Positions 1,774 to 18,471 of a stretch of DNA of 64,000 nt are shown one piece after another. The notes under the pieces were generated by a model. It was given only the letters and a program-made list of their open reading frames with translations, was not told the DNA's origin and did not search any database. The first letter of the stretch is position 1. Each line of letters starts with the position of its first letter. Position numbers and translations under genes: made by a program. This stretch comes from an uncultured Atribacterota bacterium (GTDB lineage Bacteria; Atribacterota; Phoenicimicrobiia; Phoenicimicrobiales; Stramentimicrobiaceae). The DNA is taken from positions 281 through 64,280 of the forward strand of contig CAYSAA010000035.1 of assembly GCA_964428905.1 (NCBI GenBank), in the 5' to 3' direction.

Positions 1774-2700
1774 TCAAGCACTTTCCTTACTATACGGCTT
1801 TCCTAAAAAAGCCGGGACATTAAATTGTCTTCTCACAATAGTTGCCACAATAGTTAAAATATAGGGAAATGCTATTAAAAACTCTTTGGGAATCAGCTTA
1901 AAATTGGAAGTTAACAAAACTACTGAAACCCCCTCAGCAAATCCAAATATCAAAGACCCTATTAGTATTCCCAATGGATTCCAGTTTCCTAAAAAGCAGA
2001 TTGCAAAAGCAATCCATCCTCTTCCTCCAATGATATTATTAGTGAAAAGCCCTAAAAATCCAATGGAATAAAAAGCACCGGCCAAGCCATCTAATGCACT
2101 TGCTCCTAACAAAGTAAAAAACCTGATATGTTCCACATTAATACCAGCCACATCTACTGCTGCAGGATTTTCGCCAGTAGACCGTATAATCAAACCCAAA
2201 GGAGTTCGGAATAAAACCCAATATCCTAATACAACAAGTGCTAACGATAAGTAGGTAATAATATTCTGACTAAAAAAAACGATTCCGATAACAGGAATAT
2301 TAGATAAGAAAGGGATTGAAATATCTTTTAATGGTTCTACGGTTAATGGAAGAATAGGAATTCCGAATAAAAGTTGATATAGGAATAGTCCTAAACCCAG
2401 TGTAAGGATATTGATCGCTACTCCGGTAACAATTTGGTGTTGTTTTAATTTAATCGTAAAAAACCCGTAGACTACTCCGAATAAAACTCCCACCACTAGA
2501 GCAAATAAAAAACCAACCCATATATTTCCAGTCAAATAAGCTCCAACAAACCCTCCCCATGCACCCATAAGAAAGATTCCCTCAATTGCTATATTCATAA
2601 CACCAGTTCGTTCAACAAACACTTCCCCCAAAGAACCAAGCATCAGGGGTGTGCTCATGCGAATGGTTGCAACAAGTAATCCAGTAATAATTCTACTCAT
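1774..2700 (-). CDS. ABC transporter permease (BMP/nucleoside-type, second permease of importer 1)
   Basis: 308 aa, polytopic and hydrophobic. Last gene of an SBP-ATPase-permease-permease set. Resembles NupQ/YufQ-type permeases. Confidence 0.85.
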   Translation of the reverse strand: MSRIITGLLVATIRMSTPLMLGSLGEVFVERTGVMNIAIEGIFLMGAWGGFVGAYLTGNIWVGFLFALVVGVLFGVVYGFFTIKLKQHQIVTGVAINILTLGLGLFLYQLLFGIPILPLTVEPLKDISIPFLSNIPVIGIVFFSQNIITYLSLALVVLGYWVLFRTPLGLIIRSTGENPAAVDVAGINVEHIRFFTLLGASALDGLAGAFYSIGFLGLFTNNIIGGRGWIAFAICFLGNWNPLGILIGSLIFGFAEGVSVVLLTSNFKLIPKEFLIAFPYILTIVATIVRRQFNVPAFLGKPYSKESA

Positions 2701-2705
2701 AAATG

Positions 2706-3824
2706 TTACCTTTCTTGTAGCGCTAACTTTTTCTTGCTTCTTAAAACTATTAGTTTATCTCTAATAAAATAAGATAAAATGACAGATAATATAACAAAAC
2801 CCTCCATGATACCGATAATGCTTGCAGGAATTCTTGATGTTTGCACTACTAAATTTCCACCTACTTTTAAGGCACCAAACAAAAGGGCAGAAAGTACTAT
2901 GCCCAATGGGTGCGCATTTCCCAATATAGCGATACCTATCCCTTCTGCTCCAATCATTGGATTAAATCCCTCAATCAGCATATGTTGCATTCCATTTATT
3001 TCGGTAAAACCCGCAAGACCAGCAAATGATCCGCTGATACAAAAGACTATGATATAGACTATGTTTATATTTATCCCGGCATAGCGAGCCGCATCTCGAT
3101 TATACCCGACCATCCTGATTTTATATCCTAATGATGTCCGCCATAAAATGATATAGGCTAACAGAGCAATCAAAAGAGCAATCACAAACCCCCAGTGAAG
3201 CCTGGTATCAGGGATAAGTGAAGGTAACCAACTACTTTTTGGTATAACATCAGTTTGAGGGTATTCTCCTTTAGCCTCTTTTAAGAATCCTCCAAGCAAA
3301 AAATTCATAATGGCAATAGCAACATAAGTTAACATCATACTAATTAGAAATTCATTTGCATTAAAACGTGCCTTTACATAACCGATAAATGTTGCCCATA
3401 GACCTCCTCCTGTTAAACTCATTGTAAAACACATGATGAGAATAAGATAAGAAGGAATTGATCCTAATTTTAGAGCAAAAGTCACTGCCATTACTGCTCC
3501 TATATAAAACTGTCCTTGAGCTCCGATATTGAATAAAGATGCCCGGAAAGCAAATCCAAAAGCTAATCCAGTAAAAATAAGGGGAGTTGCTTTGGCAAAT
3601 ATATCCGCTATATTATAGATATCAAGAAAGGCATAACTTAGCATATTATAATAAACTACCAAGGGATTATGCCTTAAAAGTAATATCATTAACCCGCTCA
3701 TTAGTAAACCAAACAACACAGAAAATACCGGTAAAAAATTCAGCCAAATAATGTTTTCTTGTATTATTGATGATTGCTCCACTTTTTCTTCTGCCTTGTT
3801 CATCAAATTATCAGCTTCTATCAT
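2706..3824 (-). CDS. ABC transporter permease (BMP/nucleoside-type, first permease of importer 1)
   Basis: 372 aa, polytopic. Its start overlaps the upstream ATPase stop by 4 nt (3821-3824). Confidence 0.85.
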   Translation of the reverse strand: MIEADNLMNKAEEKVEQSSIIQENIIWLNFLPVFSVLFGLLMSGLMILLLRHNPLVVYYNMLSYAFLDIYNIADIFAKATPLIFTGLAFGFAFRASLFNIGAQGQFYIGAVMAVTFALKLGSIPSYLILIMCFTMSLTGGGLWATFIGYVKARFNANEFLISMMLTYVAIAIMNFLLGGFLKEAKGEYPQTDVIPKSSWLPSLIPDTRLHWGFVIALLIALLAYIILWRTSLGYKIRMVGYNRDAARYAGININIVYIIVFCISGSFAGLAGFTEINGMQHMLIEGFNPMIGAEGIGIAILGNAHPLGIVLSALLFGALKVGGNLVVQTSRIPASIIGIMEGFVILSVILSYFIRDKLIVLRSKKKLALQER

Positions 3825-5353
3825 CTGTTTTTTTCCTCTGTAATTCCTGCCATCAGTAATCCGATTTGATCGATTTTTGCATTTTCTCTTGTTAATATTT
3901 TTAATAATTTTCCTTTATAGATTACACCTACTCGGTCTGACAGAGCCATTATTTCAGAAAGTTCTGTCGAAATTAATAAAATTGATTTTCCCTCTTCTTT
4001 TTCTTTACATAGAATTTTATGGACATATTCAACTGCTCCTAAATCCAAGCCACGCGTGGGTTGTACTGCCACAAGTAATTTTGAACCAATTTTAACTTCC
4101 CTTGCAACTGCAATTTTTTGTTGATTTCCTCCTGATAAAGTCATGGCTTTACTTTTGGAAGAGGCAGCCTTAATTTCGAAATTTAACATCAAGTTTCTAG
4201 CATCTTTCTGAATTTTGTTATGATTTATAAATCCATAATGCAAAAAAGCAGTGTTAGAATGGTCCTTGAGAAATAAATTCTCTTCTATGGACATATCTAA
4301 AACTAATCCCTCTTTATGTCTATCAGCAGGGATATATCCTACCCCTTCCCGAATAGTCGATAAAACATCCTTATTGGTAATATCTGTACCAGATAAAAAC
4401 ACTTTACCGCTTTCTATTTCACGCAAACCACATAATGCCTGGGCAAGTTCTTCCTGACCATTACCGCTAACACCTGCAATACCAAAAATCTCCCCTTCAT
4501 GAATAGTAAAAGATAACTCATCAATTACTTTGTTCTTTCTATCTCCTAAAACAACTATATTTCTTACCTTAAGAACTTCTGATTTTTTATAAGCACTATT
4601 ACCATTTGTCCTTGCAGGTGCAAGATCTCGACCTATCATCATATGAGTTAATTGCTTTCCTGATGCCTCCCGACGTAAAACATTTCCTACAAGTTTACCA
4701 TTTCTTAATACAGTAATTCTGTCTGCAATGGCCATCACTTCATTAAGTTTGTGGCTAATGAAAATAACAGAATTGCCCTTTGCCTTAAAATCATGAATAA
4801 AATGAAATAACTTTTCTGTTTCTTTAGAACTAAGAACTGAGGTTGGTTCATCCATAATCAAAATTTGTGCATTTCTATACAGGGCTTTAAGAATTTCTAC
4901 TCGTTGTTGCATACCAACGGGGAGTTGATTAATTATTGAATAAGGATTTATTTCAAGACCGTATCTTTCCCCGATTTCTGTTATTTTTTTTCCTCTATTT
5001 TCAACATCTAAATATCTTAAATAAGCTTTCTCTGTACCTAAAATAATATTTTCTACTACTGTATGCACAGGGACAAGTGTAAAATGCTGGTGAATCATAC
5101 CTATCCCATATTTCATGGCATCATGCGGAGAATGTATCTTTACCTGCTCTCCTTTAATCAATATCTCACCTTCATCTGGTTGATATAGTCCATAAAGAAT
5201 ATTCATCAAAGTAGTTTTCCCGGCACCATTTTCCCCAAAAAGAGCCAATGCTTCTCCCCTTGCTAACGTCAGGTCAATATGATCATTGGCAATTGTTCCC
5301 GGGAAATATTTGGTAATATTTGTTAAAGTAATTAAATTACCTTTGCCATTCAA
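3821..5353 (-). CDS. ABC transporter ATP-binding protein with tandem ATPase domains (importer 1)
   Basis: 510 aa. Walker A GENGAGKTT, signature LSGGNQQK, and a second degenerate NBD (GVSGNGQEE). This is the typical sugar/nucleoside CUT2-type double ATPase. Confidence 0.9.
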   Translation of the reverse strand: MNGKGNLITLTNITKYFPGTIANDHIDLTLARGEALALFGENGAGKTTLMNILYGLYQPDEGEILIKGEQVKIHSPHDAMKYGIGMIHQHFTLVPVHTVVENIILGTEKAYLRYLDVENRGKKITEIGERYGLEINPYSIINQLPVGMQQRVEILKALYRNAQILIMDEPTSVLSSKETEKLFHFIHDFKAKGNSVIFISHKLNEVMAIADRITVLRNGKLVGNVLRREASGKQLTHMMIGRDLAPARTNGNSAYKKSEVLKVRNIVVLGDRKNKVIDELSFTIHEGEIFGIAGVSGNGQEELAQALCGLREIESGKVFLSGTDITNKDVLSTIREGVGYIPADRHKEGLVLDMSIEENLFLKDHSNTAFLHYGFINHNKIQKDARNLMLNFEIKAASSKSKAMTLSGGNQQKIAVAREVKIGSKLLVAVQPTRGLDLGAVEYVHKILCKEKEEGKSILLISTELSEIMALSDRVGVIYKGKLLKILTRENAKIDQIGLLMAGITEEKNR

Positions 5354-5363
5354 AATATCTTCC

Positions 5364-5399
5364 TTTTAAAACAAAATGGAGGGTCGTTAAAGGCCCTCC
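5364..5399 (-). terminator. GC-rich stem-loop plus U-run directly after the SBP gene (intra-operon attenuator / mRNA stabiliser)
   Basis: Minus-strand RNA reads GGAGGGCCUUUAACGACCCUCC followed by AUUUUGUUUU. It sits in the 65-nt gap between the SBP and ATPase genes. Confidence 0.45.
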
Positions 5400-5418
5400 A
5401 AATCAATTTAATTTTGCT

Positions 5419-6417
5419 TTAATCTAACGATTCTGGAAAATGAGAAACAAATTGTAACAGGTCTCCTTCTGCAATCAAATCTTCTGCCCGTTTCACTATT
5501 TCTTGGACTTCTGGCGATACTTCATCACTAAAGGATATACTAATAACCCCTTCGCTAACGCCTAATTCATTTACGATTGGTTCTAAATTACCAGACATAT
5601 AATTGGTTACAATCCATTTATACATATCTTCTGTTCCAAACCAGGCACTTGCAATTACTGTTCCAGGGGCAACACTATTTTGATCGCTGGCAAAGCCTAT
5701 AAATTTAGCTCCTTTTTCTTTGCATGCTTGAATAGCACCAAGACCAACCTGATTTGCGTAGAAGAAAAGAACATCAGCTTTATTGTCAATCATAGAACCA
5801 GCCATTTGTTTGCCCAATGTTACATCATCCCATGAATTTGCATAAGACCTAATCACCTCAACCCTCGGTGAACCAATCCTTGCTCCATATTCAAAGGTAT
5901 TAAGAAGCATGATCATAAGCTTATTTGGGAAGCCTCCTGCAATTCCAATTTTACCTGTTTCTGTGGTATAACCAGCAACAATACCTGCTAAAAAGCTTGC
6001 TTCGTATTCTTTGGGTAAAACCGGACATACATTGGGGGGATTAGCAATCATACCATTAAATACGCAATAGGTAGTATCCGGATAATTCGGCCCAACTCTG
6101 TTTGCTGCTTCATCAAATTGTGTTCCAGCCGAAATAACCAAATCATATCCACGTTCACCATAATTTCGGAAGGTTGATTCAAAGTCACTTGCTTGAACAT
6201 TTTCTACATATTCCATGTTTGTGCCCAATGCATCATTACAAGCTAATAACCCTGCATAGTTTGCAGCATTCCAACTTTGATCATTGATAGGTCCAGGAAG
6301 TATTAAAACCATCTTATAACTGCCTGGATCCTGGGCTATACCAGACATAGTGCTCAAGCTCAATACCAAAATGATTAATAGTATTTGCACAATAAAACTT
6401 GAAAATTTCATTCTCAT
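5419..6417 (-). CDS. BMP-family (Med/PnrA-like) substrate-binding protein of importer 1
   Basis: 332 aa. N-terminal signal peptide with no Cys (MSGIAQD). Overall BMP-family features. GGAGA lies 8 nt upstream of the ATG. Confidence 0.85.
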   Translation of the reverse strand: MRMKFSSFIVQILLIILVLSLSTMSGIAQDPGSYKMVLILPGPINDQSWNAANYAGLLACNDALGTNMEYVENVQASDFESTFRNYGERGYDLVISAGTQFDEAANRVGPNYPDTTYCVFNGMIANPPNVCPVLPKEYEASFLAGIVAGYTTETGKIGIAGGFPNKLMIMLLNTFEYGARIGSPRVEVIRSYANSWDDVTLGKQMAGSMIDNKADVLFFYANQVGLGAIQACKEKGAKFIGFASDQNSVAPGTVIASAWFGTEDMYKWIVTNYMSGNLEPIVNELGVSEGVISISFSDEVSPEVQEIVKRAEDLIAEGDLLQFVSHFPESLD

Positions 6418-6569
6418 AATTAATATCTCCTTTTAAATTTTTTTAGTTTGGATAACACAAATTTATATTCTTTTTTTCACCTCCCATTCTCTTTATTTAT
6501 CAAATTGCACCAATGCTTACCATACAATTTAACATTTTATCAGTTCATCAAATTACCAAAGATCTTCCA

Positions 6570-7124
6570 CTAAAAATTGCTGGGAGTAATGGCAGAAATA
6601 ACAACAAGATCTTCCTCTCCGATGCTGGTTATCTTATGTGGAATACTGGCAATATAGTAAATGGTATCCCCTTTTTCCAGGATGAAAAATTCATCTCCAA
6701 TTTGGATTTCCATCTTGCCCTTTAATACGAAGGTACATTCTTCGCCTTGATGAGGAAGTGGAACGGTACAGGTGCTTGCCCCTGGCTCTAATCGGATTCT
6801 AATCATCTCAATTTGTTTGCTTAAGTCCGGACTGAGAAGTTCAAAAGTTAAGTGAGACTTGGGAAATTGTAGAACTTTGCGTTCATTCTTTCTTACTACT
6901 CCCCTTTGTTTACCATCATCAACTAAAAAGTAAAATATTGGAACATTCAACGTTTTGGAAATTTCTCTTAAGGCCATTATCGATGGTGAGGCTAACCCTC
7001 GTTCTACTTGACTTAAGTAACTGGTGGTTTTACCAATTTCCGCGGCAAAAGTAGCCAGGTTCATTCCTTTTGAAATGCGTATCTTACGAATTTTATCTCC
7101 CAGTACTTTATTTTCATTTTTCAT
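6570..7124 (-). CDS. XRE-family HTH transcriptional regulator with C-terminal cupin domain
   Basis: 184 aa. HTH_3-like LATFAAEIGKTTSYLSQVERG at the N-terminus. Cupin-2 pattern PHQGEE...G....H in the C-terminal half. Confidence 0.85.
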   Translation of the reverse strand: MKNENKVLGDKIRKIRISKGMNLATFAAEIGKTTSYLSQVERGLASPSIMALREISKTLNVPIFYFLVDDGKQRGVVRKNERKVLQFPKSHLTFELLSPDLSKQIEMIRIRLEPGASTCTVPLPHQGEECTFVLKGKMEIQIGDEFFILEKGDTIYYIASIPHKITSIGEEDLVVISAITPSNF

Positions 7125-7313
7125 CTAAGCTTAAAACCTTCATTTTGTAATTTGTAAAATATGAATAGCATTTGTTCATTGCAATAACTTATGTTAACTA
7201 TCTGATATTTTTACTTTGCTTTTCAACTTAGTTAAAAATTTTGGGAATATAGGACCGGCATTTGAGATATTTCATAACTGAATATAGTAATATGGTCTAT
7301 TTGTCAGAATAAA

Positions 7314-7351
7314 TTTATTAAATATTATTTAATTTATTTAATATTATTTAA
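7314..7351. repeat. Tandem 19-bp direct repeat (TTTATTAAATATTATTTAA / TTTATTTAATATTATTTAA)
   Basis: Two adjacent copies (7314-7332 and 7333-7351) differing at one position. They lie in the 267-bp gap upstream of the XRE-cupin gene. Confidence 0.8.
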
Positions 7352-7391
7352 GCACAATTATTAAACAATGTCAATATCTATACTGATCTCA

Positions 7392-8390
7392 TCAAATGTG
7401 CCTACTTTCTTCCTTGAAAGCTTTTACTATTTTTTCCGGGGTTATGGGCAAGGAATAAATTCTTACTCTTATGGCATCATAGACTGCATTGGCAATAGCC
7501 GGGGCAGTGGCAATCGTAGCCGGTTCTCCAATCCCTTTGGCTCCAAAAGGACCCCCTGAATCTTCATTCTCTATCAGCCGCGTAACAAAATGAGGACTAT
7601 CCATAGAAGTAGGAATTAAATAGCCGGTCAAATCAGGATTCAAAGTAATTCCTTCCTTTATAACCTGTTCTTCCATAAGAGCCATCCCGATTCCCTGGAG
7701 AGTACCTCCTTCTATCTGACCTTCTACATTTTTAGGATTTATAGCCTTTCCTATATCGACAGCAGTATAAACATTTAATACTTTCACAATTCCGGTGTCT
7801 GTATCAACTTCTACCTCAACCACCTGAGTAACAAAAGTATATGCCACATACACCTTTTTGCCCTGTCCAGTTTTGGGGTCGGGGGCATCGGTTTGAGGAA
7901 AGAAAGATGCTTCTGCTTTCAAACTTTCTCCTCTTGTTTTCACCCTTTCTGCTAATTCCCAATAACTTAATTTATCATCTGGATTTCCATATTGGAAAAT
8001 ATGGCCCCCTTCTACCCTTAATTCAGGATAACCGCTTCTAAATTCTAAACTGGCATAATGATAAATTTTAGCTAATACCTCTTCAGCCGCCCTTTTAACT
8101 GCATTTCCGGTAAAATAAGTCTGACGAGTCGCTGAAGAAGAACCTGCATTTTTGGTAAGATTGGTATCGGCTGGAATGATTTCTATGGCTTCCGGACTTA
8201 CTCTTAACACTTCTGCCACAATCTGGGTAATTACAGTTAAGACACCTTGGCCAACATCAGCTGCAGCACTTCTAACCAAAATCTTCCTATCCTTTTCAAT
8301 TTCTACTGAAGCAATAGAATGATCAGGGAATCCTTCTCCATAACCAAAACCAAACATAATGGTAGCCATTCCTTTGCCATGTTTCTTCAT
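7392..8390 (-). CDS. Mo-hydroxylase (xanthine dehydrogenase family), C-terminal half of the molybdopterin subunit (NdhM-like)
   Basis: 332 aa from the ATG at 8390; the track ORF begins at an upstream TTG. Homologous to the C-terminal 330 aa of the intact paralog at 21183-23486. Ends with the AKGIGEP catalytic-Glu motif. The ATG overlaps the upstream stop (ATGA), and GGAGGAGGG lies 6 nt upstream. Confidence 0.85.
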   Translation of the reverse strand: MKKHGKGMATIMFGFGYGEGFPDHSIASVEIEKDRKILVRSAAADVGQGVLTVITQIVAEVLRVSPEAIEIIPADTNLTKNAGSSSATRQTYFTGNAVKRAAEEVLAKIYHYASLEFRSGYPELRVEGGHIFQYGNPDDKLSYWELAERVKTRGESLKAEASFFPQTDAPDPKTGQGKKVYVAYTFVTQVVEVEVDTDTGIVKVLNVYTAVDIGKAINPKNVEGQIEGGTLQGIGMALMEEQVIKEGITLNPDLTGYLIPTSMDSPHFVTRLIENEDSGGPFGAKGIGEPATIATAPAIANAVYDAIRVRIYSLPITPEKIVKAFKEESRHI

Positions 8391-9658
8391 ATGGTTCCCT
8401 CCTCCCAACCAGCCATGTTTATCGCTTCTCTAATGGTTTCTTTTACCCCTACACTATGGGTTAATATCTGTTTATTGGGTGTGGAAGAACCAATATCATA
8501 AGCATTTTGCCAACGAAATTGAGCCGGATTAATCCCTAATTTGCAAGCCAGAATATCCATCTGAGACTCATAGGCAAAAGCCATCTGAGTTGTACCAAAA
8601 CCACGCATTGCCCCTGCATAGGTGTTATTAGTGTAAACAGTATAGGCTACTCCTTTGACATGATCAACATTATAAGGTCCGGTGCAGTGATACATACCTT
8701 TGTGCACTACTGCCGGACCGCTGGAAGCATATGCTCCAGTATCACCGATTACTTCAACCTGCCAGGCAGTTAAATAGCCCTTTTTGGTTGCACCAGTCTT
8801 TGCCCGAATAATAAATGCATGTCGCTTAGATTGAGCAATCATTGATTCTTCCCGGGTATAAGTCAGTTTCACTGGCCTTTTAGTCATCATTGCCGCTAAA
8901 GCCAGGTGAATATGGACAGAGATATCTTCTTTTCTTCCAAAAGCACCCCCAATAGCTGGTTGAATAATCATTACCTTTTCTTTAGGAATACCTAAAGACT
9001 GAGCTATATCAGCTTGAGTGTCATGAAGCCATTGAGAAGCTACCCAGAGTTTTATAACCTCATTCTTTGGGTCAAAAAATCCGACTCCTGCTTCCACTTG
9101 GAGAGGAATATGGTCTAAAAAACTTGTTCTATATTCATTTTCTACAATTACTTCTGCTTCTGCAAAACCCTTTTTTATATCACCCTTTTTTAAATAATGA
9201 GTAATTAAAATATTGCCATCTTCATGAATATAGGGAGCACCTTTGGTCATTGACCGCAAGGGATCAGATATTACTTCTAATTTTTCTACTTCAACTTCAA
9301 TTAACTTAGCTGCTTTAGAAGCAATTTCCTTGCTTTCTGCTATAACTATAGCCAGGGCATCTCCCATATAACGTATTTTTTCGCCAATAGCAATAAGAAC
9401 TGGTTGGTCCTTTATAATCAAACCAAAATTCTTCACGGTAGGAATGTCAGCTGCAGTAATGACCTTAACTACTCCCGGTAATTTTTGTGCTTTACTTATA
9501 TCAATCTTTCGTAGGTAGGCATGAGGATAAGTAGCTCTTTTGATTTTAAGATACAACATATCGTCAAAATAGATATCGTCAGGATATATGGCTTGACCGA
9601 TTACTTTATCCCGGGCATCTACTTTATAAACATTTCTACCTACATATCTTTCAGTCAT
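8387..9658 (-). CDS. Mo-hydroxylase, N-terminal half of the molybdopterin subunit (NdhL-like)
   Basis: About 423 aa from the ATG at 9658 (AAGGAG 8 nt upstream; the track start at 9679 is also possible). Has the a/b-hammerhead region plus GGAFGRKE and AMRGFG motifs. Collinear with residues 1-430 of the 767-aa paralog. Confidence 0.85.
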   Translation of the reverse strand: MTERYVGRNVYKVDARDKVIGQAIYPDDIYFDDMLYLKIKRATYPHAYLRKIDISKAQKLPGVVKVITAADIPTVKNFGLIIKDQPVLIAIGEKIRYMGDALAIVIAESKEIASKAAKLIEVEVEKLEVISDPLRSMTKGAPYIHEDGNILITHYLKKGDIKKGFAEAEVIVENEYRTSFLDHIPLQVEAGVGFFDPKNEVIKLWVASQWLHDTQADIAQSLGIPKEKVMIIQPAIGGAFGRKEDISVHIHLALAAMMTKRPVKLTYTREESMIAQSKRHAFIIRAKTGATKKGYLTAWQVEVIGDTGAYASSGPAVVHKGMYHCTGPYNVDHVKGVAYTVYTNNTYAGAMRGFGTTQMAFAYESQMDILACKLGINPAQFRWQNAYDIGSSTPNKQILTHSVGVKETIREAINMAGWEEGTI

Positions 9659-10157
9659 TTTTTTTGCTCCTTCCGCCACCCTTTTCCCTTAATCTGCTGG
9701 CAGATAATTCAATGGCATCAAATATTTTTTGATAGCCAGTACAGCGACACAGGTTGCCGGAGATACCTCGCTTAATATCCTCCTCACTGGGATATAAATT
9801 CTCTTCTAACAGTCTTTTGGCAGCTAAAATCATGCCCGGGGTACAAAATCCACATTGAACTGCCCCAGTCTCTATAAAAGCCTCTTGGATAGGATTGAGA
9901 TGCTTACTACTACCTATGCCTTCGATCGTAGTAATAACTGCTCCCTCAGCTTGGGGTGCCAACACCAAACAGGAGGCTACCAGCTCTCCGTTCATTATCA
10001 CAGTGCAAGCCCCACACTCACCCTTCCCGCATCCCTCTTTAGTTCCTGTTAGATGTAAGTCATCCCTTAAAAGATCCAACAAGCGGGTATGAGAAGTTGT
10101 TTCAATCTTTCTTTTCTTACCATTAACGGTTAATTCAATTACTAATTTTTCCACCAT
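9651..10157 (-). CDS. Mo-hydroxylase small subunit, 2x[2Fe-2S]
   Basis: 168 aa. Motifs GCGKGECGACTV and CGFCTPG...CRCTGY are diagnostic of XDH/CODH small subunits. Confidence 0.92.
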   Translation of the reverse strand: MVEKLVIELTVNGKKRKIETTSHTRLLDLLRDDLHLTGTKEGCGKGECGACTVIMNGELVASCLVLAPQAEGAVITTIEGIGSSKHLNPIQEAFIETGAVQCGFCTPGMILAAKRLLEENLYPSEEDIKRGISGNLCRCTGYQKIFDAIELSASRLREKGGGRSKKND

Positions 10158-11043
10158 AGTACCTCCGTAGGGCTAAATCTATCTCTTCTAAGGCATTTAT
10201 CATTATCTCTTTCGCAACATCTTTGCGATACTCTCTGGTCCCCCTGATATCATCGATAGGGGCAATTTTATCCTCAACTATCTGACCTAATTGGTCAAAA
10301 TCTAATTGATTAAACTGTTTTCCTGCCATCTTTGTTCCAATTTCTTTAATTTCAATAGGAGTAGGCGCTACAGAGCCCAGGCAAGTTCTTACCTCCTTAA
10401 TGGTTTTATTATCTGCAGCCATTTTCACTATCAGGGCTAAGGTAATGGTAGCAATGGCCAAAGCCCTTCTCTTACCAATTTTTATCCAGCTGCCATAAGT
10501 ATTTTCACCGGGCAAAGGAAGGATTACCTGGGTTAATAATTGATCCGGTTTTAGGATAGTTTTTTTAGGTCCGATAAAAAATTCTTCTGCGAGAACTAAA
10601 ACTTCTCCTTGCTGAGAGAGCAATCTAAATTGAGCATTGTAAGCTATTAAAGGAGGAAGGAAATCACCTGCTGGAGAGGCATTAACAATATTACCTCCCA
10701 TAGTACCTCGGTTTCTTATCTGGGGAGAACCAATATCCGCTGCAGCCAGGTTTAAGACCGGAAAGTACTTTTTGATATCTTCAGATTTTTCTAATTGAGC
10801 ATGAGTAACCATCGCCCCAATTATCATCTTATCTTCAACTATTTTTACTTCTTTCAATTCTTGAATTAATCGTAAATCTAACCACCCGCTCACTTCATAT
10901 AGTCGATCATAATATTGTACTAAAAGGTCAGTCCCTCCCGCAATCACCTTTAGCTCATTTTGATAACGGGACAAAATCTCCAGTGCCTCCTTTAATTCCC
11001 GAGGTGCAAAATACTGCTGATTCGGTAAGGTTCTCTGTCGCAT
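10135..11043 (-). CDS. Mo-hydroxylase FAD-binding subunit (CoxM/XdhB/NdhF-like)
   Basis: 302 aa. AGGTDL and NRGTMGGNIVNASPAGD motifs of the FAD_binding_5/CO_deh_flav_C family. Confidence 0.92.
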   Translation of the reverse strand: MRQRTLPNQQYFAPRELKEALEILSRYQNELKVIAGGTDLLVQYYDRLYEVSGWLDLRLIQELKEVKIVEDKMIIGAMVTHAQLEKSEDIKKYFPVLNLAAADIGSPQIRNRGTMGGNIVNASPAGDFLPPLIAYNAQFRLLSQQGEVLVLAEEFFIGPKKTILKPDQLLTQVILPLPGENTYGSWIKIGKRRALAIATITLALIVKMAADNKTIKEVRTCLGSVAPTPIEIKEIGTKMAGKQFNQLDFDQLGQIVEDKIAPIDDIRGTREYRKDVAKEIMINALEEIDLALRRYYGGKISN

Positions 11044-11227
11044 AAATCCCTTGCCTCCTTTAAAAAAGGATATCTTCTTTTATTTTTTAATCTTCTTTTT
11101 CTTATTACCTAAACCAATAGAGTTGCTCTGGCAATACCTTAAAAATTGAAAAGGGTACAGTTGCTAAGAATAAGAACAGGACTTTTTTGTTTTTTAGCAT
11201 GCAATTGTCAAGTTATATTTTAAATTA

Positions 11228-14200
11228 TTACATGTTAATTAAATAATGATAATCTTTTAAGATGGTGTTTATTACCGTGAAAATCTTGTTAAGTTCCTTA
11301 AAATCACCATTGTTATTGCTTGGATATTTAAAATTTGCGGGTATGATTAATTCATTGTTTTTATTAATTTTCAACTTCCATAAATCATCTTTTACCCTTA
11401 AGGTTATTAACTTATCATCAGACGAACCTGTAATAACAAAACCAGTATTGGTACTGTTTCTAAAGTCTTCTATGGTGCTAAAAAAGGTTAGCTTATCTCG
11501 GTAGGGTTTCCCATCATAGGGACAGAAGGTAGCGCAGTTTCCACATTCATTGCATAACGCATCGAGATGAAGAATCTGGTAAATATCCTTAAAATCTTCT
11601 TTTTTATCCACTTTAATTGCTACATTTGCCCGATTAGGACAGACATCTACACATTTATTACAGATCGTATTGCACTCGAGACACCGCTCTGCTTCCGTCT
11701 CAGCTATTACCCTATCATCTTCGGATATTGGTACAGAAATGAGGCGCCCTTTTTTATAATAGATTTCCTGTATTTGTTTCTTTTGATCAAAATCTAAGTC
11801 AATGTTTTTATCCAAACCTTTCCAATTCGGTATTTCCTTTTTAGCGATAGCCTCTGCTGCCTTTCTCGCATCGGCAATAGCTTCAACTACTGTTGAGGGA
11901 CCTCGCAGGATATCACCGCCAATAAAAACATTTGTAAGGTTAGTCTCTAGTGTTTCTGTGTTTACATATAGTCTGTTATTTTTTTCAACCTTTAATCCGC
12001 AGGTTGTTAAAAAGGTAGAGTCTGCATGTTCACCAATAGCACCAATAACAGCATCTACAGCCATCTCTGTGGTCTCCTCAGTAGGAGCAGGACTCCTGCG
12101 ACCACTTTTGTCAGGAGCACCTAAAGACATCTTGCGACATTTTAGAACCCCCTCTTTGGAAAATGCTTCCGGCAACAAGAGGGGCTTAAAAACAACCCCC
12201 TCTGCAAGGGCTCGCTTATACTCTTCTTGGTCTGCAGGCATTTCCTCTTCAGTACGGCGATAGATGATAAAAACCTCTTCAACACCCTTTACCCTCAGTG
12301 CGGAACGGGCACTATCTACGGCAGTATTTCCGCCCCCTATTACCGCAATCCGTCGACCAATGTTCAGAGACCTTTCTTCCTTATGGAATGACCTTAAAAA
12401 ATCCAGGGCTTCATAAACATGATGATTATCTCCAGTCAGCTGCAGCTTTTGTGAAGCTTCTGCCCCAATTCCTATAAAAATATATTTATATCCCTCATTT
12501 TTTAAATGACGAACAGAGAATTCATCTGATATACCATATTTGAAATCTACCCCCATTGCTTCAATATTAGCAATATCTTTTTGAATGGCAGATATTGGGA
12601 TTCTGAAATTAGGCAGTATATGGGCTACGACACCTCCGGGGGAATCTTGTTTCTCAAATATAGTTACCTTAAATCCTGCTTTAGATAGAAAATAAGCTGC
12701 AGATAGCCCTGCCGGTCCTGCTCCGATAACCGCAACTTTGGTATTTAACTGCTTGGCAATACTGAGACTTTTACTATGTTGGACATATCTCCCATGCTCA
12801 GCAGCAATCCTCTTGATCTCACGAATATTGACTGCCCCTTCATAATCAAGTCGGCTGCAATTATACATACATTGATGAGCGCAAATATATCCAGTTATAT
12901 TAGGAAGAGGATTTTTCAAATAGATAAGTTCCAAAGCCTTATCGTACTGCCCATCTCCCACCAGTCGAATATACTCCGGAATATCTTGAAGGATTGGACA
13001 GGAGAGAATACAGGGAGCAATGTAGCAGTCGGTTAAGGGTAATTTTCGATCAATGAAAACCTTCTTCGTTCCCCTCCAATCTTTTTGGTAATAATTATCT
13101 TGCAGGGATTTTTCGGCTAATTGTTCAAGCTTCTTGACATCAATCATATTGGTTTGACTCTTCTCTTCCATAATTGGCTCTAATTTTCGAGCCATTTCTG
13201 CCATTCTCAGGTAACCGCCCGGTTTCAAAAGTTCAGTAGCCACGGTAATGGGCTTAATTCCTGTCTCAAAAATCCGGAGAATATTTAACTGAGATGCCCC
13301 TCCTGAATAAGAGATCGGGAGAGTCCCTGCAAATTGCCGTGCTAAGCGGGAAGCCAGAGTAATGGTAATGGGAAAGAGAATACGTCCGGACAGATACATT
13401 TCTTCTCCCGGAAGAATGCCCAAGGTATTTACCGTTCCCAGGGTATTGGAAAGTTTAATACCAAAATAACGATTGCATTCAGCAGCTAATTTAGAAAGCC
13501 GTTCAATCATCCCTATTGCATCATCCCACTGCAGGTCCTTAGTAAATGTCGATTCTTTGAGAGTTACATAGTTGAAACCAAGGGCATCCAGTATTTTTCT
13601 AACTTGTTTATACCCCAGGAGGGTCGGGTTCAACTTTACATAGGTATTAAGCTTTTTTTTCTCCATCAGATATCTGCTTATCGCCTCTATCTCCTGGGGA
13701 GGGCATCCATGCATGGTAGAAAGAGTGACCGATCGGGTAATATAAGGTGAAATCATACTGGAAATATTCTCAAGTCCTTGGACCTGTCCTTTAATACCCA
13801 TAGCTTCTGAAAGGTCCAATCCCCGGATAAAAGAAAGCAATTCTTCCAGATGACGCTTAAATACCAAGTTTTTTGAGGCATCAGCTAAATGGTTAATGAA
13901 GGAATTCATTTTTGGCGTTTTGATACCCTTCAGGTCGTAGCCAACACTCATATTAAAAATAAAAGAGTGCTCCGGAGAAACACATCTATTAAAAATAGAC
14001 TCTATCAGGTAAAGCAGAATCCATGCTTTGAGATACTCGTCAAAGGCCTGTTCCAGAGAAAGTTCGGTAGACCATTCAGTATTATAACCCTCGTCTAGCG
14101 CGTCAATACAGGGTTTATCAAATTGCAGACTGTCAAGTTTCTGCACCGTTTTAAGCTCAAAAAACCGGCCCCCCACTAAATAGGCGGTAACAATATTTTG

Positions 14201-14398
14201 AGCTAATTGGGTATGAGGTCCTGCTGCCGGTCCCAAAGGAAGGCCACAGTTTTCATTAAATATCTGAATATGATTCGGATTTTCTTGAACAAAAAATTGG
14301 GATTCCGGTATCCCAAAAATGGTATGTTGGGAACGATATTCTTCAATTATCCATCGGAGCAACTGCTTAAACGGAACTGGTCGCATAACATCGCCCAT
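11228..14398 (-). CDS. ygfK: YgfK-type multidomain Fe-S flavoprotein ('putative selenate reductase subunit YgfK')
   Basis: 1056 aa (E. coli YgfK is about 1030 aa). The N-terminus MGDVMRPVPFKQLLRWIIEEYRSQHTIFGIPESQFF matches the YgfK N-terminus as I recall it. Has a TIM-barrel-like N-terminal third, two Rossmann motifs (VAVIGAGPAGLSAA, IAVIGGGNTAVDSA) and C-terminal CxxCxxCxxxCP ferredoxin motifs. Confidence 0.9.
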   Translation of the reverse strand: MGDVMRPVPFKQLLRWIIEEYRSQHTIFGIPESQFFVQENPNHIQIFNENCGLPLGPAAGPHTQLAQNIVTAYLVGGRFFELKTVQKLDSLQFDKPCIDALDEGYNTEWSTELSLEQAFDEYLKAWILLYLIESIFNRCVSPEHSFIFNMSVGYDLKGIKTPKMNSFINHLADASKNLVFKRHLEELLSFIRGLDLSEAMGIKGQVQGLENISSMISPYITRSVTLSTMHGCPPQEIEAISRYLMEKKKLNTYVKLNPTLLGYKQVRKILDALGFNYVTLKESTFTKDLQWDDAIGMIERLSKLAAECNRYFGIKLSNTLGTVNTLGILPGEEMYLSGRILFPITITLASRLARQFAGTLPISYSGGASQLNILRIFETGIKPITVATELLKPGGYLRMAEMARKLEPIMEEKSQTNMIDVKKLEQLAEKSLQDNYYQKDWRGTKKVFIDRKLPLTDCYIAPCILSCPILQDIPEYIRLVGDGQYDKALELIYLKNPLPNITGYICAHQCMYNCSRLDYEGAVNIREIKRIAAEHGRYVQHSKSLSIAKQLNTKVAVIGAGPAGLSAAYFLSKAGFKVTIFEKQDSPGGVVAHILPNFRIPISAIQKDIANIEAMGVDFKYGISDEFSVRHLKNEGYKYIFIGIGAEASQKLQLTGDNHHVYEALDFLRSFHKEERSLNIGRRIAVIGGGNTAVDSARSALRVKGVEEVFIIYRRTEEEMPADQEEYKRALAEGVVFKPLLLPEAFSKEGVLKCRKMSLGAPDKSGRRSPAPTEETTEMAVDAVIGAIGEHADSTFLTTCGLKVEKNNRLYVNTETLETNLTNVFIGGDILRGPSTVVEAIADARKAAEAIAKKEIPNWKGLDKNIDLDFDQKKQIQEIYYKKGRLISVPISEDDRVIAETEAERCLECNTICNKCVDVCPNRANVAIKVDKKEDFKDIYQILHLDALCNECGNCATFCPYDGKPYRDKLTFFSTIEDFRNSTNTGFVITGSSDDKLITLRVKDDLWKLKINKNNELIIPANFKYPSNNNGDFKELNKIFTVINTILKDYHYLINM

Positions 14399-14582
14399 AA
14401 TGATTCCCTCCTTGTAACATACATCGCATATCTTCTATTTTGCGATAAAATTGTAATTGGTAACGAACTTTTCTCTTTCACAGTTTAGCATAATTACTTA
14501 TCATTATAATAATCATAAGGAATAATAATAAATATTTTTCTTTTTCAATGGTTACTAATTTTACTCCCCGCCCTTGCACCTG

Positions 14583-14634
14583 TTTAAAAACAATTCCTTC
14601 TGAAATCATTCGAAGCACCAATTCAGGATTGTTC
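14583..14634 (-). terminator. Probable rho-independent terminator after the DUF364 gene
   Basis: Minus-strand RNA AACAAUCCUGAA...UUCAGAAGGAAUUGUU forms an imperfect hairpin followed by UUUUUA, 14-65 nt after the stop at 14648. Confidence 0.4.
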
Positions 14635-14647
14635 TTTCCTTTCTTTT

Positions 14648-15373
14648 TTAATGGCTGCAGAAACAATAATGATGATAATTCATGAGGTAGGCAATACCAC
14701 TAATGGTAACCCCATAAAAGATAATCGGCTTTTTACCTAATAGAGAAGTTAAGGTATTATTTACCGAGGTTGTGCCGGTAGCGATAATAATATCAGAGCT
14801 GGATATCATTTGCCGGGTATGGGACACATTCTCTATAAGAATGCCATTTTTTCTAAGACCTACATTGCCTTTATCTAAATCAACAACTCTGATTTTAAAA
14901 GTTGTCGATAGCGATTCGACTATTGCTGGTTGTAATCCAATAAAAGCTATACGCGGTTGCCCAAATTTTTCTTGCATATAATTTTTAAACTGGGTAGCAC
15001 ATTCTGCAGGCTCTTGGTCTCTACAATGAATGGTATTGGAAATATAGCCCAAATAGCGTAAAACAGCATTGATACTGGCAATAAAAACAGCCCTCTGAAA
15101 ATTATTAATAAGTGGAAGTTGAAAAACGTCTCTTAATGTTCCAGTAAAATTTCCGGGCATATCAGTAAATGCCTGTCCTAAACTTCCCCTGAAATCAGCT
15201 TGCATCATGACTTCCTTACCCTTTAATAAGGGAAAATCATCTCTTCCCGGATTTCCTATTACCTCTTGAGGAGTAAGAGGCCTCACATTCACCACATGAA
15301 AGGTAGATGACCAAATATTATTATCTGAAACCAACAGGTAAAATTTTTCCTTGATTTTCTGGTATAAATTCAC
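14648..15373 (-). CDS. DUF364/DUF4213-type protein ('putative heavy-metal chelation' Rossmann-like domain)
   Basis: 241 aa. IAFIG...VVDL...IIIATGTTSVNNTL resembles the DUF364 signature. The C-terminus is Cys/His-rich (NYHHYCFCSH). Family call is from memory of the Pfam signature. Confidence 0.6.
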   Translation of the reverse strand: MNLYQKIKEKFYLLVSDNNIWSSTFHVVNVRPLTPQEVIGNPGRDDFPLLKGKEVMMQADFRGSLGQAFTDMPGNFTGTLRDVFQLPLINNFQRAVFIASINAVLRYLGYISNTIHCRDQEPAECATQFKNYMQEKFGQPRIAFIGLQPAIVESLSTTFKIRVVDLDKGNVGLRKNGILIENVSHTRQMISSSDIIIATGTTSVNNTLTSLLGKKPIIFYGVTISGIAYLMNYHHYCFCSH

Positions 15374-15410: not shown

Positions 15411-16430
15411 TTATCGGCCAAAATAACAAAATGGATAATGACATTTAGAACAAGTAGCGCAAAATCCGCCTTCGCCCATTTTTATAAAGTCCTTTTTAGA
15501 CAGGATATCGCCTATGAATATTCTTGGTAAGACAATATCTAAAATCGTATTTTTATAAAATAAGGATGCACCAGGGATACCTATTAAGGTCGTCTCTCCT
15601 GAATAGGCCAACATAAACATATTGCCTGGTTGAACGGGGACACCATAGGTCACAATCTTTGCACCGCTTTCTTTAATGGCACCGGGTGTCAGGTCATCCG
15701 GATCTACTGACATTCCCCCGCTTAAGGCTATCAGGTCGACATTCAGTTGTCTAAAATAAGAGATGGCTGCTTTAATTTTTCCAATATCATCGGGGCATAA
15801 AATTTGTCCTTTAATCTCTGCTCCAAAATAAGCAAACTTCTTCCTTAATAAAGGACCAAATTCATCTTTAATCAACCCTTTAAACACTTCATTACCGGTA
15901 GTCACAATACCCACTCTTAGACTCTTATACTTTTTTACAGCAAAAACAGCCCCTTCTTCCTGACATAATACTTCTACTTTTTTGATCATTTCTTCTGGAA
16001 TAACGAGAGGAACAATGCGCACACCTGCTAAACTCTGATTTTCAATTACCCTGAAATGATTGGGAAGACAAGGAATGGTAACATTTTCTATAGAATTTAT
16101 TTGGTATAGAAGTTTGCTTTTAACTTCAAACAATCCTTTGGTTAACGATTTTAAGGTTATTTTCCCCTCAACAGGTTCATCAAATTTAATATTCTCTCCT
16201 GATATTGCTTGAGATATTCTCAGAGAGGCTTCATTCTCATGAATTTCCCCTTGCTTGGGCTGCCAGACATAAATGTATTCCTTGCCAATTTTCTTTAACT
16301 TTTCAATATCTTCCTGCCTGATAATATGATCTTTTCGAAAGGCAGGTCCTTTGAATTTTCCAGGTATAATTTGTGTAATGTCATGACATAACTTCGTACC
16401 AACTGCTTTAGCTACCGGTATCTTTTTCAT
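15411..16430 (-). CDS. Molybdopterin-binding protein (MoCF_biosynth / MoeA-like) with Cys-rich tail
   Basis: 339 aa. The central VGIVTTGNEV...LSGGMSVDPDD region is typical of MoaB/MogA/MoeA domain III. The C-terminus reads GGFCATCSKCHYPFCYFGR. Confidence 0.7.
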   Translation of the reverse strand: MKKIPVAKAVGTKLCHDITQIIPGKFKGPAFRKDHIIRQEDIEKLKKIGKEYIYVWQPKQGEIHENEASLRISQAISGENIKFDEPVEGKITLKSLTKGLFEVKSKLLYQINSIENVTIPCLPNHFRVIENQSLAGVRIVPLVIPEEMIKKVEVLCQEEGAVFAVKKYKSLRVGIVTTGNEVFKGLIKDEFGPLLRKKFAYFGAEIKGQILCPDDIGKIKAAISYFRQLNVDLIALSGGMSVDPDDLTPGAIKESGAKIVTYGVPVQPGNMFMLAYSGETTLIGIPGASLFYKNTILDIVLPRIFIGDILSKKDFIKMGEGGFCATCSKCHYPFCYFGR

Positions 16431-16505: not shown

Positions 16506-17198
16506 TCATTCTCCAATCGAATTTTCTTTCCTTTCGAAATAAGTCCTGGCTTTTAAATAATCTTCATCTCTATCAATATCAAATAAAATTGAACGATCTG
16601 AGATATTTATTCTTTTCACCTTATCAGGATGTGCCTTTATTAGTACTCTGCCACCTACATCACCGGTTATATTCATTAACTCCTCTTTCCAATCAAGGTC
16701 AAAAAGAACCGGATTTCCCCGTTTATCTTGATAATAAGGAACAACTATCTCTTTTTTGCCTTTAGTAAAAGAGGTAATCAGTTGATTGATAATTTTGGCG
16801 TTAATCAAAGGCTGATCACCTAAAATCAGACAAAAGCCATCTACCTCTTTTCTCTGGGAATCCAATTGAAGTAGACCTTTTTGAATGGTTGTACTCATAC
16901 CTTTCTTAAAATCGGGGTTAAAAACAATTTCTGCCTTCCACCTTTTCCCTATCTCTGAAACCTCTTTATCATCCGGACGTATCACTAAGATCATTTTATC
17001 TAACAGAGAGGATAAAGCTGCTTCCAATACCCATTCAATGATTTTTTTGGAACCTAAGGAAAGATTTAATTTTGGCTTACCCATTCTAATCCCTTCCCCT
17101 GCAGCTAAAATAATACCTGCTATCTTTGTGTCCACTGAATTAAAATCGCTTCCAAAAGTCTTGTGCCTGTTCTTTTGTTTTAATAGCAATCCTTTCAT
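16506..17198 (-). CDS. mocA: Molybdenum cofactor cytidylyltransferase (MobA-like NTP transferase, MocA/PucB type)
   Basis: AGIILAAGEGIRMGKPKL and LGDQPLI motifs. The start is uncertain: the ATG at 17198 overlaps ssnA by 59 nt, while a GTG at 17135 lies 4 nt after the ssnA stop. Confidence 0.8.
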   Translation of the reverse strand: MKGLLLKQKNRHKTFGSDFNSVDTKIAGIILAAGEGIRMGKPKLNLSLGSKKIIEWVLEAALSSLLDKMILVIRPDDKEVSEIGKRWKAEIVFNPDFKKGMSTTIQKGLLQLDSQRKEVDGFCLILGDQPLINAKIINQLITSFTKGKKEIVVPYYQDKRGNPVLFDLDWKEELMNITGDVGGRVLIKAHPDKVKRINISDRSILFDIDRDEDYLKARTYFERKENSIGE

Positions 17199-18471
17199 AA
17201 TCTAATCCACATATATTTCGATCTTCCATTAATATTTTACCGCCTACAATAGTATAATCAACCATATCTCCGCTCAGCCCGAATAAAATATGAAAATAAA
17301 CATTATTACTGTTGATGGGAGTAGGCGGAAAGTAATTGACCACTAAAAAATCAGCAGGGGCTCCTGCCGCAAGGATTCCCAGAGGTTGATTAAAAAATTT
17401 ATGGGCAATCTCACGGTTATTTTTAAACGCCATCTGAAAAACTTCTTCTGAGCCAGCCTGAGGATGGTGCAGTTCATGTTTTTGTAATAGATTTGCCACT
17501 TTGATGCTTTCAAACATATCAGCAGTATATCCATCCGTCCCCAATCCTACCACAATACCTTTATCGAAAGAGGATTGAACCGGAGCCATACCTACTGCAT
17601 TACCCATATTAGATTCAGGATTATGAACTAAATAAACCTGATTATTTTTTAACATTTCCAATTCTTTTTCCTGAAGATGAACACCATGAATAGCTAAAGT
17701 CCCGGGACGTAAAATATGAAAATGCTGAAGACGATCTGCCACTCCTTTATAACCACGGGTCTTGCTTTCGTAAACATCAGCCATTCCCTCGGCCACATGG
17801 ATATGAAAAGGGATTTCTAATTCATCAGATAGAGAAGCTGCTTGGGATAAAGTTTCATTATTTAGCGTAAAAGAGGCGTGAAGTCCAATTAACCCTCTTA
17901 AATAGTTATTGCTTTCCTGTTGTGTCCTCTTTATAAATCGTTCATTTTCCCTGATCCCTGCCAAAGCCTTTTCCTGACCGTCACGGTCGGAAATTTCATA
18001 AGATAGATTAGCTCTAATACCTGTCTGATGTATCGCTTCAGCAATTACATCTAAACTTCCATCAATAAAATTACTACTGGCATGATGATCAAAGATGGTG
18101 GTCGTTCCCTTTTTTACACAATCTAAAAGAGCATACATTGCACTGTAATATATATCTTCTTTATTTAAAGTTCTATCTAATCTCCACCAGAGCTTTTCCA
18201 AAATTTCTACAAAATTTTTAGGTGGCACATCTGTTTTAAGATTCATTCCTCGTGCAAAAGTACTATAAAGATGCATATGAGTATTAATCATACCGGGCAT
18301 TATGATTCTGCCCTTAATATCTTTAAAGGTAGCTTCCGGGTATTTTATTCGCAATTCTTCCGTTTTTTCAACTGCCAAAATATCCACTCCGTCAATGGCC
18401 ACTCCACCATTAGGGATAACTCGAGTATCTTTATCAAGAGTAATCACAGTTCCATTTCCAATAATCAACAT
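17140..18471 (-). CDS. ssnA: SsnA-type putative aminohydrolase (amidohydrolase superfamily)
   Basis: 443 aa (E. coli SsnA is 442 aa). Collinear motifs include MPGMINTHMHLY, LWWRLDRTLNKEDIYYS, IFDHHAS, HIHVAEG and LGTDG. Confidence 0.88.
   Translation of the reverse strand: MLIIGNGTVITLDKDTRVIPNGGVAIDGVDILAVEKTEELRIKYPEATFKDIKGRIIMPGMINTHMHLYSTFARGMNLKTDVPPKNFVEILEKLWWRLDRTLNKEDIYYSAMYALLDCVKKGTTTIFDHHASSNFIDGSLDVIAEAIHQTGIRANLSYEISDRDGQEKALAGIRENERFIKRTQQESNNYLRGLIGLHASFTLNNETLSQAASLSDELEIPFHIHVAEGMADVYESKTRGYKGVADRLQHFHILRPGTLAIHGVHLQEKELEMLKNNQVYLVHNPESNMGNAVGMAPVQSSFDKGIVVGLGTDGYTADMFESIKVANLLQKHELHHPQAGSEEVFQMAFKNNREIAHKFFNQPLGILAAGAPADFLVVNYFPPTPINSNNVYFHILFGLSGDMVDYTIVGGKILMEDRNICGLDYERIAIKTKEQAQDFWKRF

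Follow-up and report, generated by a model that had tools for sequence, protein, structure and literature searches.

A 64-kb stretch of genomic DNA from an uncultured Atribacterota bacterium (hereafter, the window) carries the genes F, S, L and M, which are predicted to encode one molybdenum (Mo) hydroxylase of the xanthine dehydrogenase (XDH) family. The gene of its Mo subunit is split in two, L and M, and this split is natural, translationally coupled and heritable. The operon lies in a purine-catabolic cluster spanning positions ~331-30456 of the window, and we consider, with about even confidence, that its product is a hypoxanthine/xanthine ('purine') hydroxylase/XDH.

All four open reading frames (ORFs) are present on the minus strand, which carries every gene of this region (Table 1), and they overlap by 23 nt (F/S), 8 nt (S/L) and 4 nt (L/M). 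The mechanically delimited ORF of L begins earlier, at the GTG at 9679, resulting in 430 aa. The gene order, chain lengths, junction and motifs listed in a first-pass annotation of this DNA, in which the strand was unstated, were all confirmed. According to Pfam, L contains the a/b hammerhead domain Ald_Xan_dh_C (PF01315) and MoCoBD_1 (PF02738), and M contains MoCoBD_2 (PF20256): the cut between both chains is thus a domain boundary. The C-terminus of L reads AGWEEGTI; in an intact paralog of 767 aa, encoded elsewhere in the window, the linker reads YSKGKKEDKKRGIGMAVSF at residue 427. All features of the XDH/aldehyde oxidase family were found: the three Mo domains, the catalytic glutamate and the iron-sulfur (FeS) and FAD partners. 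The motifs GGAFGRKE (at L237), AMRGFG (at L350) and GIGEP (at M286) are intact. In bovine numbering, GIGEP, VASQ and AMRGFG align to the E1261, Gln767 and Arg912/Phe914 positions; L carries Gln767, Glu802, Lys880, Arg912 and Phe914, and M carries Tyr1009, Glu1011, Ser1078 and the catalytic Glu1261.

Among the NCBIfam models, S matches the XdhC/PucE type (~190 bits) and F matches XdhB with 213 bits, vs. 66 bits for the YgfM-type TIGR03312; an equivalog cut-off is reached by none of the four subunits, and hence, no curated name applies. A scan of positions 6300-14800 for promoters and terminators gave counts equal to chance and no break between ygfK, F, S, L and M. The four chains (34, 18, 47 and 36 kDa) would form one functional XDH-family hydroxylase, the Mo-pterin subunit being made as two polypeptides that would reassemble like NdhL and NdhM, of the Eubacterium barkeri nicotinate dehydrogenase (NDH), in structure 3HRD.

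At the L/M junction, the minus strand reads GGGAGGAGGGAACCATATGAAG. The order on the coding strand is GGGAGGAGGG-AACCAT-ATGA: a GGAGG-rich Shine-Dalgarno run stops 6 nt before the ATG. Such a stop/start overlap, with its strong ribosome-binding site, would keep both Mo halves co-translated.

The same split is found in relatives. The best 120 database clusters matching M (77-100% identity), some of them labelled Atribacteria or Caldatribacteriota, are every one 326-341 aa long, and 10 or more contigs of several metagenomes encode the identical M protein, always together with a separate L gene. A genome scan based on YgfK used patterns taken from the N-terminus that it has in common with E. coli; the matches were thus confined to Atribacterota, Spirochaetota and Gammaproteobacteria, with neither Clostridia nor the XdhAC of C. 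sporogenes among them. The scan revealed ygfK-F-S-L-M also in other Atribacterota genomes, split in the loci L008, L009, L011 and L013. The split Atribacterota relatives, among them Ca. Sediminicultor and Ca. Phoenicimicrobium, have L/M chains 79-84% identical to those of the window and retain the ATGA overlap. The cultured Petrotoga mexicana DSM 14811 possesses a split L of 423 aa (73% identical) and M of 331 aa (69%), with the junction TGAcaATG and an F that is 56% identical to that of the window. A Halanaerobiales metagenome-assembled genome (MAG) shows the same four-gene arrangement with the ATGA overlap, which is kept in Halanaerobiales L098 and in Atribacterota L009 and L011. The earlier proposal of a natural split, coupled in translation rather than decaying, is borne out by this conservation of split and junction, and its question whether orthologs are split as well is answered positively in Atribacterota, Petrotoga and the Halanaerobiales MAG.

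Judged from its genes, the cluster is that of the anaerobic purine-degradation pathway through 2,8-dioxopurine. In this pathway, a separate XDH makes urate; the 2,8-dioxopurine dehydrogenase (DOPDH), a selenium (Se)-dependent FeS-Mo fusion named XdhAC with the active-site changes F1009V (aliphatic) and A1078T/S, interconverts urate and 2,8-dioxopurine; and YgfK, the NADPH:2,8-dioxopurine oxidoreductase, of which the window protein is a homolog, reduces the latter (bioRxiv 10.1101/2025.04.24.650524). The adenine and guanine deaminases encoded nearby would supply F-S-L-M with hypoxanthine and xanthine, which it would hydroxylate to urate. The 767-aa paralog, which appears to be the better candidate for DOPDH, would run urate <-> 2,8-dioxopurine, the step feeding YgfK. 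The first-pass designation as a candidate purine hydroxylase stands as the leading reading in its link to purines (the purine cluster, and Glu802 where NDH has Leu), whereas we only infer the substrate and the division of labour between both hydroxylases.

The active sites are grouped by their signatures. The canonical XDHs (g2) have F1009 and V/A1078, and the FeS-Mo fusions (g1) have E802, R880, an aliphatic 1009 and T/S1078, which fits the reported DOPDH changes. The XdhD type (D) is characterized by Q802, N880, an aliphatic 1009 and Y1078, the L/M type of the window (g5) by E802, K/Q880, Y1009, E1011 and S1078, and the 767-aa type (g7) by D802, R880, L/M1009 and V1078. The pocket of the 767-aa paralog itself is unusual: D802, W879, L1009 and V1078. 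L/M keep an aromatic 1009, together with F914, E802 and E1261, as XDHs do; an aliphatic 1009 is common to the 767-aa paralog, XdhD and the FeS-Mo fusions.

One assignment would give every cluster both activities: g2 or g5 as the urate-forming enzyme and g1, D or g7 as the urate-dehydroxylating one. A matching rule would be that an aromatic 1009 marks urate-forming and an aliphatic 1009 urate-dehydroxylating enzymes. For Acetomicrobium-type clusters, this holds only if a third, unclassified Mo gene is urate-forming; located at the edge of these loci, with just ~15 residues visible, this gene is not classifiable. F-S-L-M is favoured as the purine hydroxylase because the assignment would provide each cluster with a urate-forming and a urate-dehydroxylating enzyme. 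In three loci and lineages (one of them Selenihalanaerobacter shriftii), a g5 enzyme with a fused Mo subunit adjoins a separate FeS-Mo fusion of 913-919 aa (g1; aliphatic 1009, Thr1078), and no other Mo hydroxylase was found within ~10 kb in these loci. Moreover, g5 is near an adenine deaminase in 6/6 cluster types examined. The hypoxanthine/xanthine role would be the most parsimonious one, as the fused orthologs adjoin a separate, presumably DOPDH-type fusion and are always near adenine deaminase.

The pairing of g5 with g7 is seen in the window, Petrotoga, the Halanaerobiales MAG and one Bacillota contig. Orthologs of the 767-aa paralog, 68-71% identical, are present in Petrotoga, Acetomicrobium and Halanaerobiales. 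This conservation across phyla is much tighter than that of L/M and suggests a lateral spread of the cluster. In Andreesenia angusta, a purinolytic species, a related enzyme (group g6) is encoded with adenine deaminase on one side and the YqeC, XdhC-like and MoCF accessory genes on the other.

Several points weigh against the purine hydroxylase role, and most of them speak for an alternative that we consider unlikely but serious: F-S-L-M itself would be the DOPDH of the cluster, responsible for the reductive 6-dehydroxylation of urate, and the 767-aa paralog would be the XDH. As an FAD-linked enzyme of four chains, F-S-L-M would then replace XdhD/YgfM or XdhAC without being their ortholog and pass 2,8-dioxopurine to YgfK. 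F starts 185 nt after the end of ygfK, and the block ygfK-F-S-L-M is conserved in Atribacterota, even apart from the other purine genes (L011). The gene F overlaps ssnA in most relatives, matching the E. coli order ssnA-ygfM-xdhD. In E. coli and Acetomicrobium, this slot is exactly that of XdhD/YgfM, and Acetomicrobium has an unfused XdhD-like F-S-Mo775 in it, beside a 767-type enzyme. The ygfK linkage and the ssnA overlap therefore favour the DOPDH role. Furthermore, no XdhD-type or XdhAC-type gene is present in the window or its contig extension; with no recognised DOPDH in this cluster type, that chemistry must come from one of the two hydroxylases that contain FAD, if not from a gene elsewhere in the genome. 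A DOPDH function of the 767-aa paralog would also imply redundancy in Acetomicrobium and Vibrionaceae, where g7 co-occurs with XdhD-type enzymes.

At the residue level, Arg880, essential in classical XDH, is not conserved: it is Lys in the window and Gln in the nearest fused clade. Ser1078 corresponds to the reported DOPDH change A1078T/S, and the best NCBIfam match of L is TIGR03311, a model that scores 405 and 162 bits on the chains, below its cut-off of 830. The bovine numbering was checked for self-consistency only, E802, L873, R880, F914, F1009, A1078 and E1261 falling on the expected residues. Finally, the FeS-Mo fusions would be of the DOPDH type by their architecture and by two residues quoted in bioRxiv 10.1101/2025.04.24.650524.

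On the other side, if F-S-L-M were the DOPDH, the three independent g5 + g1 loci would hold two DOPDHs and no XDH, beside adenine deaminase and purine permeases. Tyr1009 is aromatic, vs. aliphatic in both presumed DOPDH types. L/M are only 29-33% identical to E. coli XdhD and 29-43% to the FeS-Mo fusions, and the models TIGR03313 (XdhD) and TIGR03312 (YgfM) give 197, 136 and 66 bits vs. cut-offs of 1102 and 241. By these identities and by the preference of F for the XdhB over the YgfM model, F-S-L-M is not an ortholog of XdhD/YgfM. The ygfK loci scanned point the same way: YgfM and XdhD accompany ygfK in almost all of the 70 from Gammaproteobacteria and Spirochaetota, and F-S-L-M does so in Atribacterota alone. 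Of the first-pass term 'split counterpart of YgfM/XdhD', the positional part holds, the slot after ssnA/ygfK being equivalent, whereas the orthology does not. In the less likely DOPDH reading, urate 6-dehydroxylation in Atribacterota, Petrotoga and some Halanaerobiales would be the work of F-S-L-M, the third form of this newly discovered activity to have been recruited independently, with FAD and four chains; if this were true, a physical or electronic coupling to YgfK or PreA-like reductases would be possible.

The XdhD-type Mo subunits are themselves not always fused to FeS domains. In Spirochaetota, L015 has S followed by a subunit of 788 aa and L016 has S with one of 775 aa, and the Acetomicrobium-type loci L095:17186-20782 and L099:17149-20771 have separate FAD, FeS and ~775-aa Mo genes of the XdhD type; the FeS-Mo junction of XdhD is therefore variable, too. 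On the C. butyricum megaplasmid, a proxy FeS-Mo fusion has 935 aa, with no ygfK close by. In the Vibrionaceae ygfK loci (L021, L025, L033 and L038), there are proteins of 1022-1098 aa that are 46% identical to the 767-aa subunit and, by their length, would suit a Mo + FAD fusion; the next gene is for an S2-like FeS protein. A canonical XDH and YgfM/XdhD are also present, resulting in three hydroxylases per cluster. Relatives without ygfK carry a PreA-like DHODH/4Fe-4S protein of ~363 aa beside the hydroxylase genes (L096:20564-21655, L098:20509-21618, L091:12417-13517 and L088:15114-17567), accompanied in L088 by a GltD-like partner. This protein may represent a YgfK analog, either in two parts or with no partner.

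The true orthologs of L/M are the fused F-S-Mo enzymes (~760-790 aa) of Bacillota purine clusters: P0122, P0292 (S. shriftii), P0300 and P0304. These are 55-62% identical to L and 55-61% to M, and in the operon of L088, S and F are 67% and 41% identical to their counterparts in the window. The gene order F-S-Mo is the same, as are the residues E802, K/Q880, F914, Y1009, E1011 and S1078 and the neighbours: an ssnA-like gene, adenine deaminase and the HTH-cupin regulator. Unlike in the window, their Mo subunit is a single chain, and several of them have as neighbour an additional FeS-Mo fusion or a PreA-like reductase in place of ygfK.

A second alternative is that F-S-L-M is a nicotinate dehydrogenase orthologous to NdhFSLM of E. 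barkeri. The gene order is the same, the cut point is identical, and the best matches in the PDB are NdhL for L (3HRD_A, 337 bits, E = 1.4e-99; next match, 180 bits) and NdhM for M (3HRD_B, E = 1.2e-62, aligned 1-328 to 1-328). However, L/M are just 41-43% identical to NdhL/NdhM, no higher than to the intact paralog or the FeS-Mo fusions. In an exhaustive search of cluster representatives, the second-best match is the fused P0122 (769 aa, 56% identical), below which split, fused and FeS-fused architectures are intermixed. A curated, bootstrapped neighbor-joining tree of the M domain places the window, two other Atribacterota, Petrotoga and P0121 in a split clade (98/100). The fused P0300/P0304 form its sister (99/100), and both together are nested within an otherwise fused clade (99/100). 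NdhL/NdhM are found elsewhere, with P0134, P0127 and P0126 and their own mix of split and fused relatives. A grouping with XdhD in an earlier unbootstrapped tree (153 M domains) was spurious and is superseded by this one. The NDH signature L802/Y873/N1009 is also replaced by E802/S873/Y1009, and the neighbourhood is that of purines, no nicotinate-pathway gene being identified among the annotated window genes. The tree, pocket residues and neighbours being all contrary, the nicotinate identity is rejected as highly improbable.

The split clade nests among fused enzymes, and the NDH clade lies apart; hence, by this tree, the fission of the window gene is independent of that of NDH, and a shared origin of both splits, which the parallel drawn in the first-pass annotation might suggest, is not borne out. 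The Mo gene would have been cut at the MoCoBD_1/MoCoBD_2 linker in an ancestor common, by descent or transfer, to Atribacterota, Petrotoga and a Halanaerobiales lineage. Across the family, M-type chains that stand alone (~325-345 aa, with alignments starting at residue 1) occur in between relatives of fused and FeS-fused architecture, and this linker appears to have seen many events of fission or fusion.

An error of sequencing or assembly, or a pseudogene in decay, has a probability close to nil as the origin of the split: nothing speaks for it beyond the generic chance of a 1-nt indel, and the conservation of the split rules it out. Hundreds of independent assemblies from three phyla show the split, M begins with the conserved MKK[HKR]G[KR]G, the ribosome-binding site is conserved as well, and the halves have diverged to 69-84% identity with the catalytic motifs still kept.

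Table 1. Features of the purine-degradation cluster and of the F-S-L-M operon; positions are those of the 64-kb window.
Feature	Position	Strand	Description	Match
F	10135-11043	minus	FAD-binding subunit, 302 aa, 33.9 kDa	Pfam FAD_binding_5 + CO_deh_flav_C
S	9651-10157	minus	2x[2Fe-2S] subunit, 168 aa, 18.1 kDa	Pfam Fer2 + Fer2_2
L	8387-9658	minus	N-terminal half of Mo subunit, 423 aa from ATG (MTERYVG), 47.0 kDa	Pfam
M	7392-8390	minus	C-terminal half of Mo subunit, 332 aa from ATG (MKKHGKG), 36.0 kDa	Pfam
L/M junction	8387-8406	minus	GGGAGGAGGG (8406-8397), 6-nt spacer, ATGA stop/start overlap (8390-8387)	
HyuA-like cyclic amidohydrolase	331-1701	minus	456 aa	
HTH_3 + cupin regulator	6570-7124	minus	184 aa, downstream of M	
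ygfK	11228-14398	minus	1056 aa, directly upstream of F	TIGR03315, 1424 bits; 51% identical to E. coli YgfK
DUF364 protein	14648-15373	minus	241 aa	Weak DUF364 ('heavy-metal chelation') match
MoCF_biosynth-domain protein	15411-16430	minus	339 aa	
MocA cytidylyltransferase	16506-17198	minus		
SsnA	17140-18471	minus		NCBIfam, above cut-off
8-oxoguanine-deaminase-like amidohydrolase	18485-19843	minus		NCBIfam, above cut-off
FeS subunit, intact paralogous hydroxylase operon	19861-20325	minus	154 aa	
FAD subunit, same operon	20318-21196	minus	292 aa	
Mo subunit, same operon	21183-23486	minus	767 aa	
Adenine deaminase	28747-30456	minus	569 aa, hypoxanthine source	TIGR01178, 627 bits

The matches of SsnA and the amidohydrolase reach 601 bits (NF005540) and 598 bits (NF006055), and the HTH-cupin type of regulator recurs in the related clusters L088 and L098. 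Genes similar to ygeY, ygeW and ygeX are located just past the left end of the window, as seen on the contigs L003-L005, whose M protein is identical. The hydroxylase genes are flanked by two complete ABC transporters of the BMP/PnrA family (1774-6417 and 23663-28382); each consists of a double ATPase, two permeases and a binding protein, and both probably serve purine or nucleoside uptake. Further away, sarcosine-oxidase beta- and alpha-like genes with a small ORF (44045-47044) adjoin a branched-chain amino-acid ABC transporter, and the dcw cell-division cluster (mraZ to ftsZ) fills positions 47698-63398.

A dependence of F-S-L-M on selenium is plausible, the indirect support coming from relatives only. 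The first-pass annotation had suggested looking for selD, yqeB and yqeC: with tblastn, none of them was found in the 64-kb window. The queries YqeB, YqeC, XdhC-like, SelD/A/B and PreA-like had as sole match in the window the 339-aa MoCF protein, which is 43% identical to one adjoining YqeC and an XdhC-like gene in A. angusta. YqeC and XdhC-like genes are present in related clusters, and the DUF364 protein may substitute for the missing yqeB/yqeC. In other Atribacterota (L011:3713-8101, L013:3230-7599 and L009:1-2943), selD, selB, selA and a gene of 397 aa precede ygfK-F-S-L-M; the selD ORF there is truncated, perhaps at its own selenocysteine codon. In place of these sel genes, the window has the DUF364, MoCF and mocA genes. 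No sequence signature separates the Se from the S enzymes (bioRxiv 10.1101/2025.04.24.650524).

Four-chain Mo hydroxylases are already known, and split NDH homologs have already been noted in print; a literature search found no paper linking Atribacterota to this enzyme. What is added here are the independent fission, its spread over three phyla and the DOPDH question. In XDH-family enzymes, at least two separate cuts of the Mo subunit have hit exactly the same linker; with split and fused forms interspersed all over the family, this linker is a natural seam. The pocket signature E802, K/Q880, Y1009, E1011 and S1078 defines a clade of uncharacterised purine-cluster hydroxylases. Moreover, a widespread version of the 2,8-dioxopurine cluster (Atribacterota, Petrotoga, Halanaerobiales and other Bacillota) is without an XdhD- or XdhAC-type enzyme in the sequence examined, which raises the question of which FAD-containing hydroxylase takes the 6-oxo group off urate. 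The same operon being present in the cultured P. mexicana DSM 14811, this question is testable.

Compared with the described forms of DOPDH, XdhAC of C. sporogenes and XdhD/YgfM of E. coli (bioRxiv 10.1101/2025.04.24.650524), F-S-L-M belongs to the same pathway cluster and occupies the same genomic slot adjoining ygfK/ssnA. Like DOPDH, it is an XDH-family Mo enzyme with a hydroxyl residue (Ser) at position 1078. In contrast, its S, L and M are separate chains with no FeS-Mo fusion, its FAD subunit is classical XdhB-like and not of the YgfM kind, and its residue 1009 is Tyr, not aliphatic.

Clostridium purinolyticum reportedly possesses a Se-dependent purine hydroxylase, a multi-subunit Mo enzyme that is said to convert purine and hypoxanthine into xanthine and to coexist with a separate XDH (work attributed to Self and Stadtman, 2000). 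By its description, this enzyme would match F-S-L-M in its four-chain count, and its substrate hypoxanthine fits the linkage to adenine deaminase in the window. The genome paper on C. acidurici annotates purine hydroxylase 'delta' and 'gamma' subunits, which implies four chains.

The closest architectural counterpart, and the best template for the structure, is the Se-dependent NDH of E. barkeri (3HRD), with its order F-S-L-M and subunits of 33/23/50/37 kDa (genes described by Alhapel et al. 2006, summarised in PMC10331938); this review confirms the ndhF-S-L-M order with a split Mo subunit cited in the first-pass annotation. In published clustering, DOPDH is nearest to the NDH cluster, whose homologs are often split (bioRxiv 10.1101/2025.04.24.650524). 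Both operons consist of four genes for the FAD subunit, the FeS subunit and the N- and C-terminal Mo halves, and both Mo subunits are cut at the same residue: NdhM starts with MKKRGKG and M of the window with MKKHGKG, and NdhL/NdhM measure 425/330 aa vs. 423/332 aa for L/M. The likeness ends at the pocket, which is E802/S873/K880/Y1009 in the window and L802/Y873/R880/N1009 in NDH, and at the context: purine catabolism for F-S-L-M, nicotinate catabolism for NDH.

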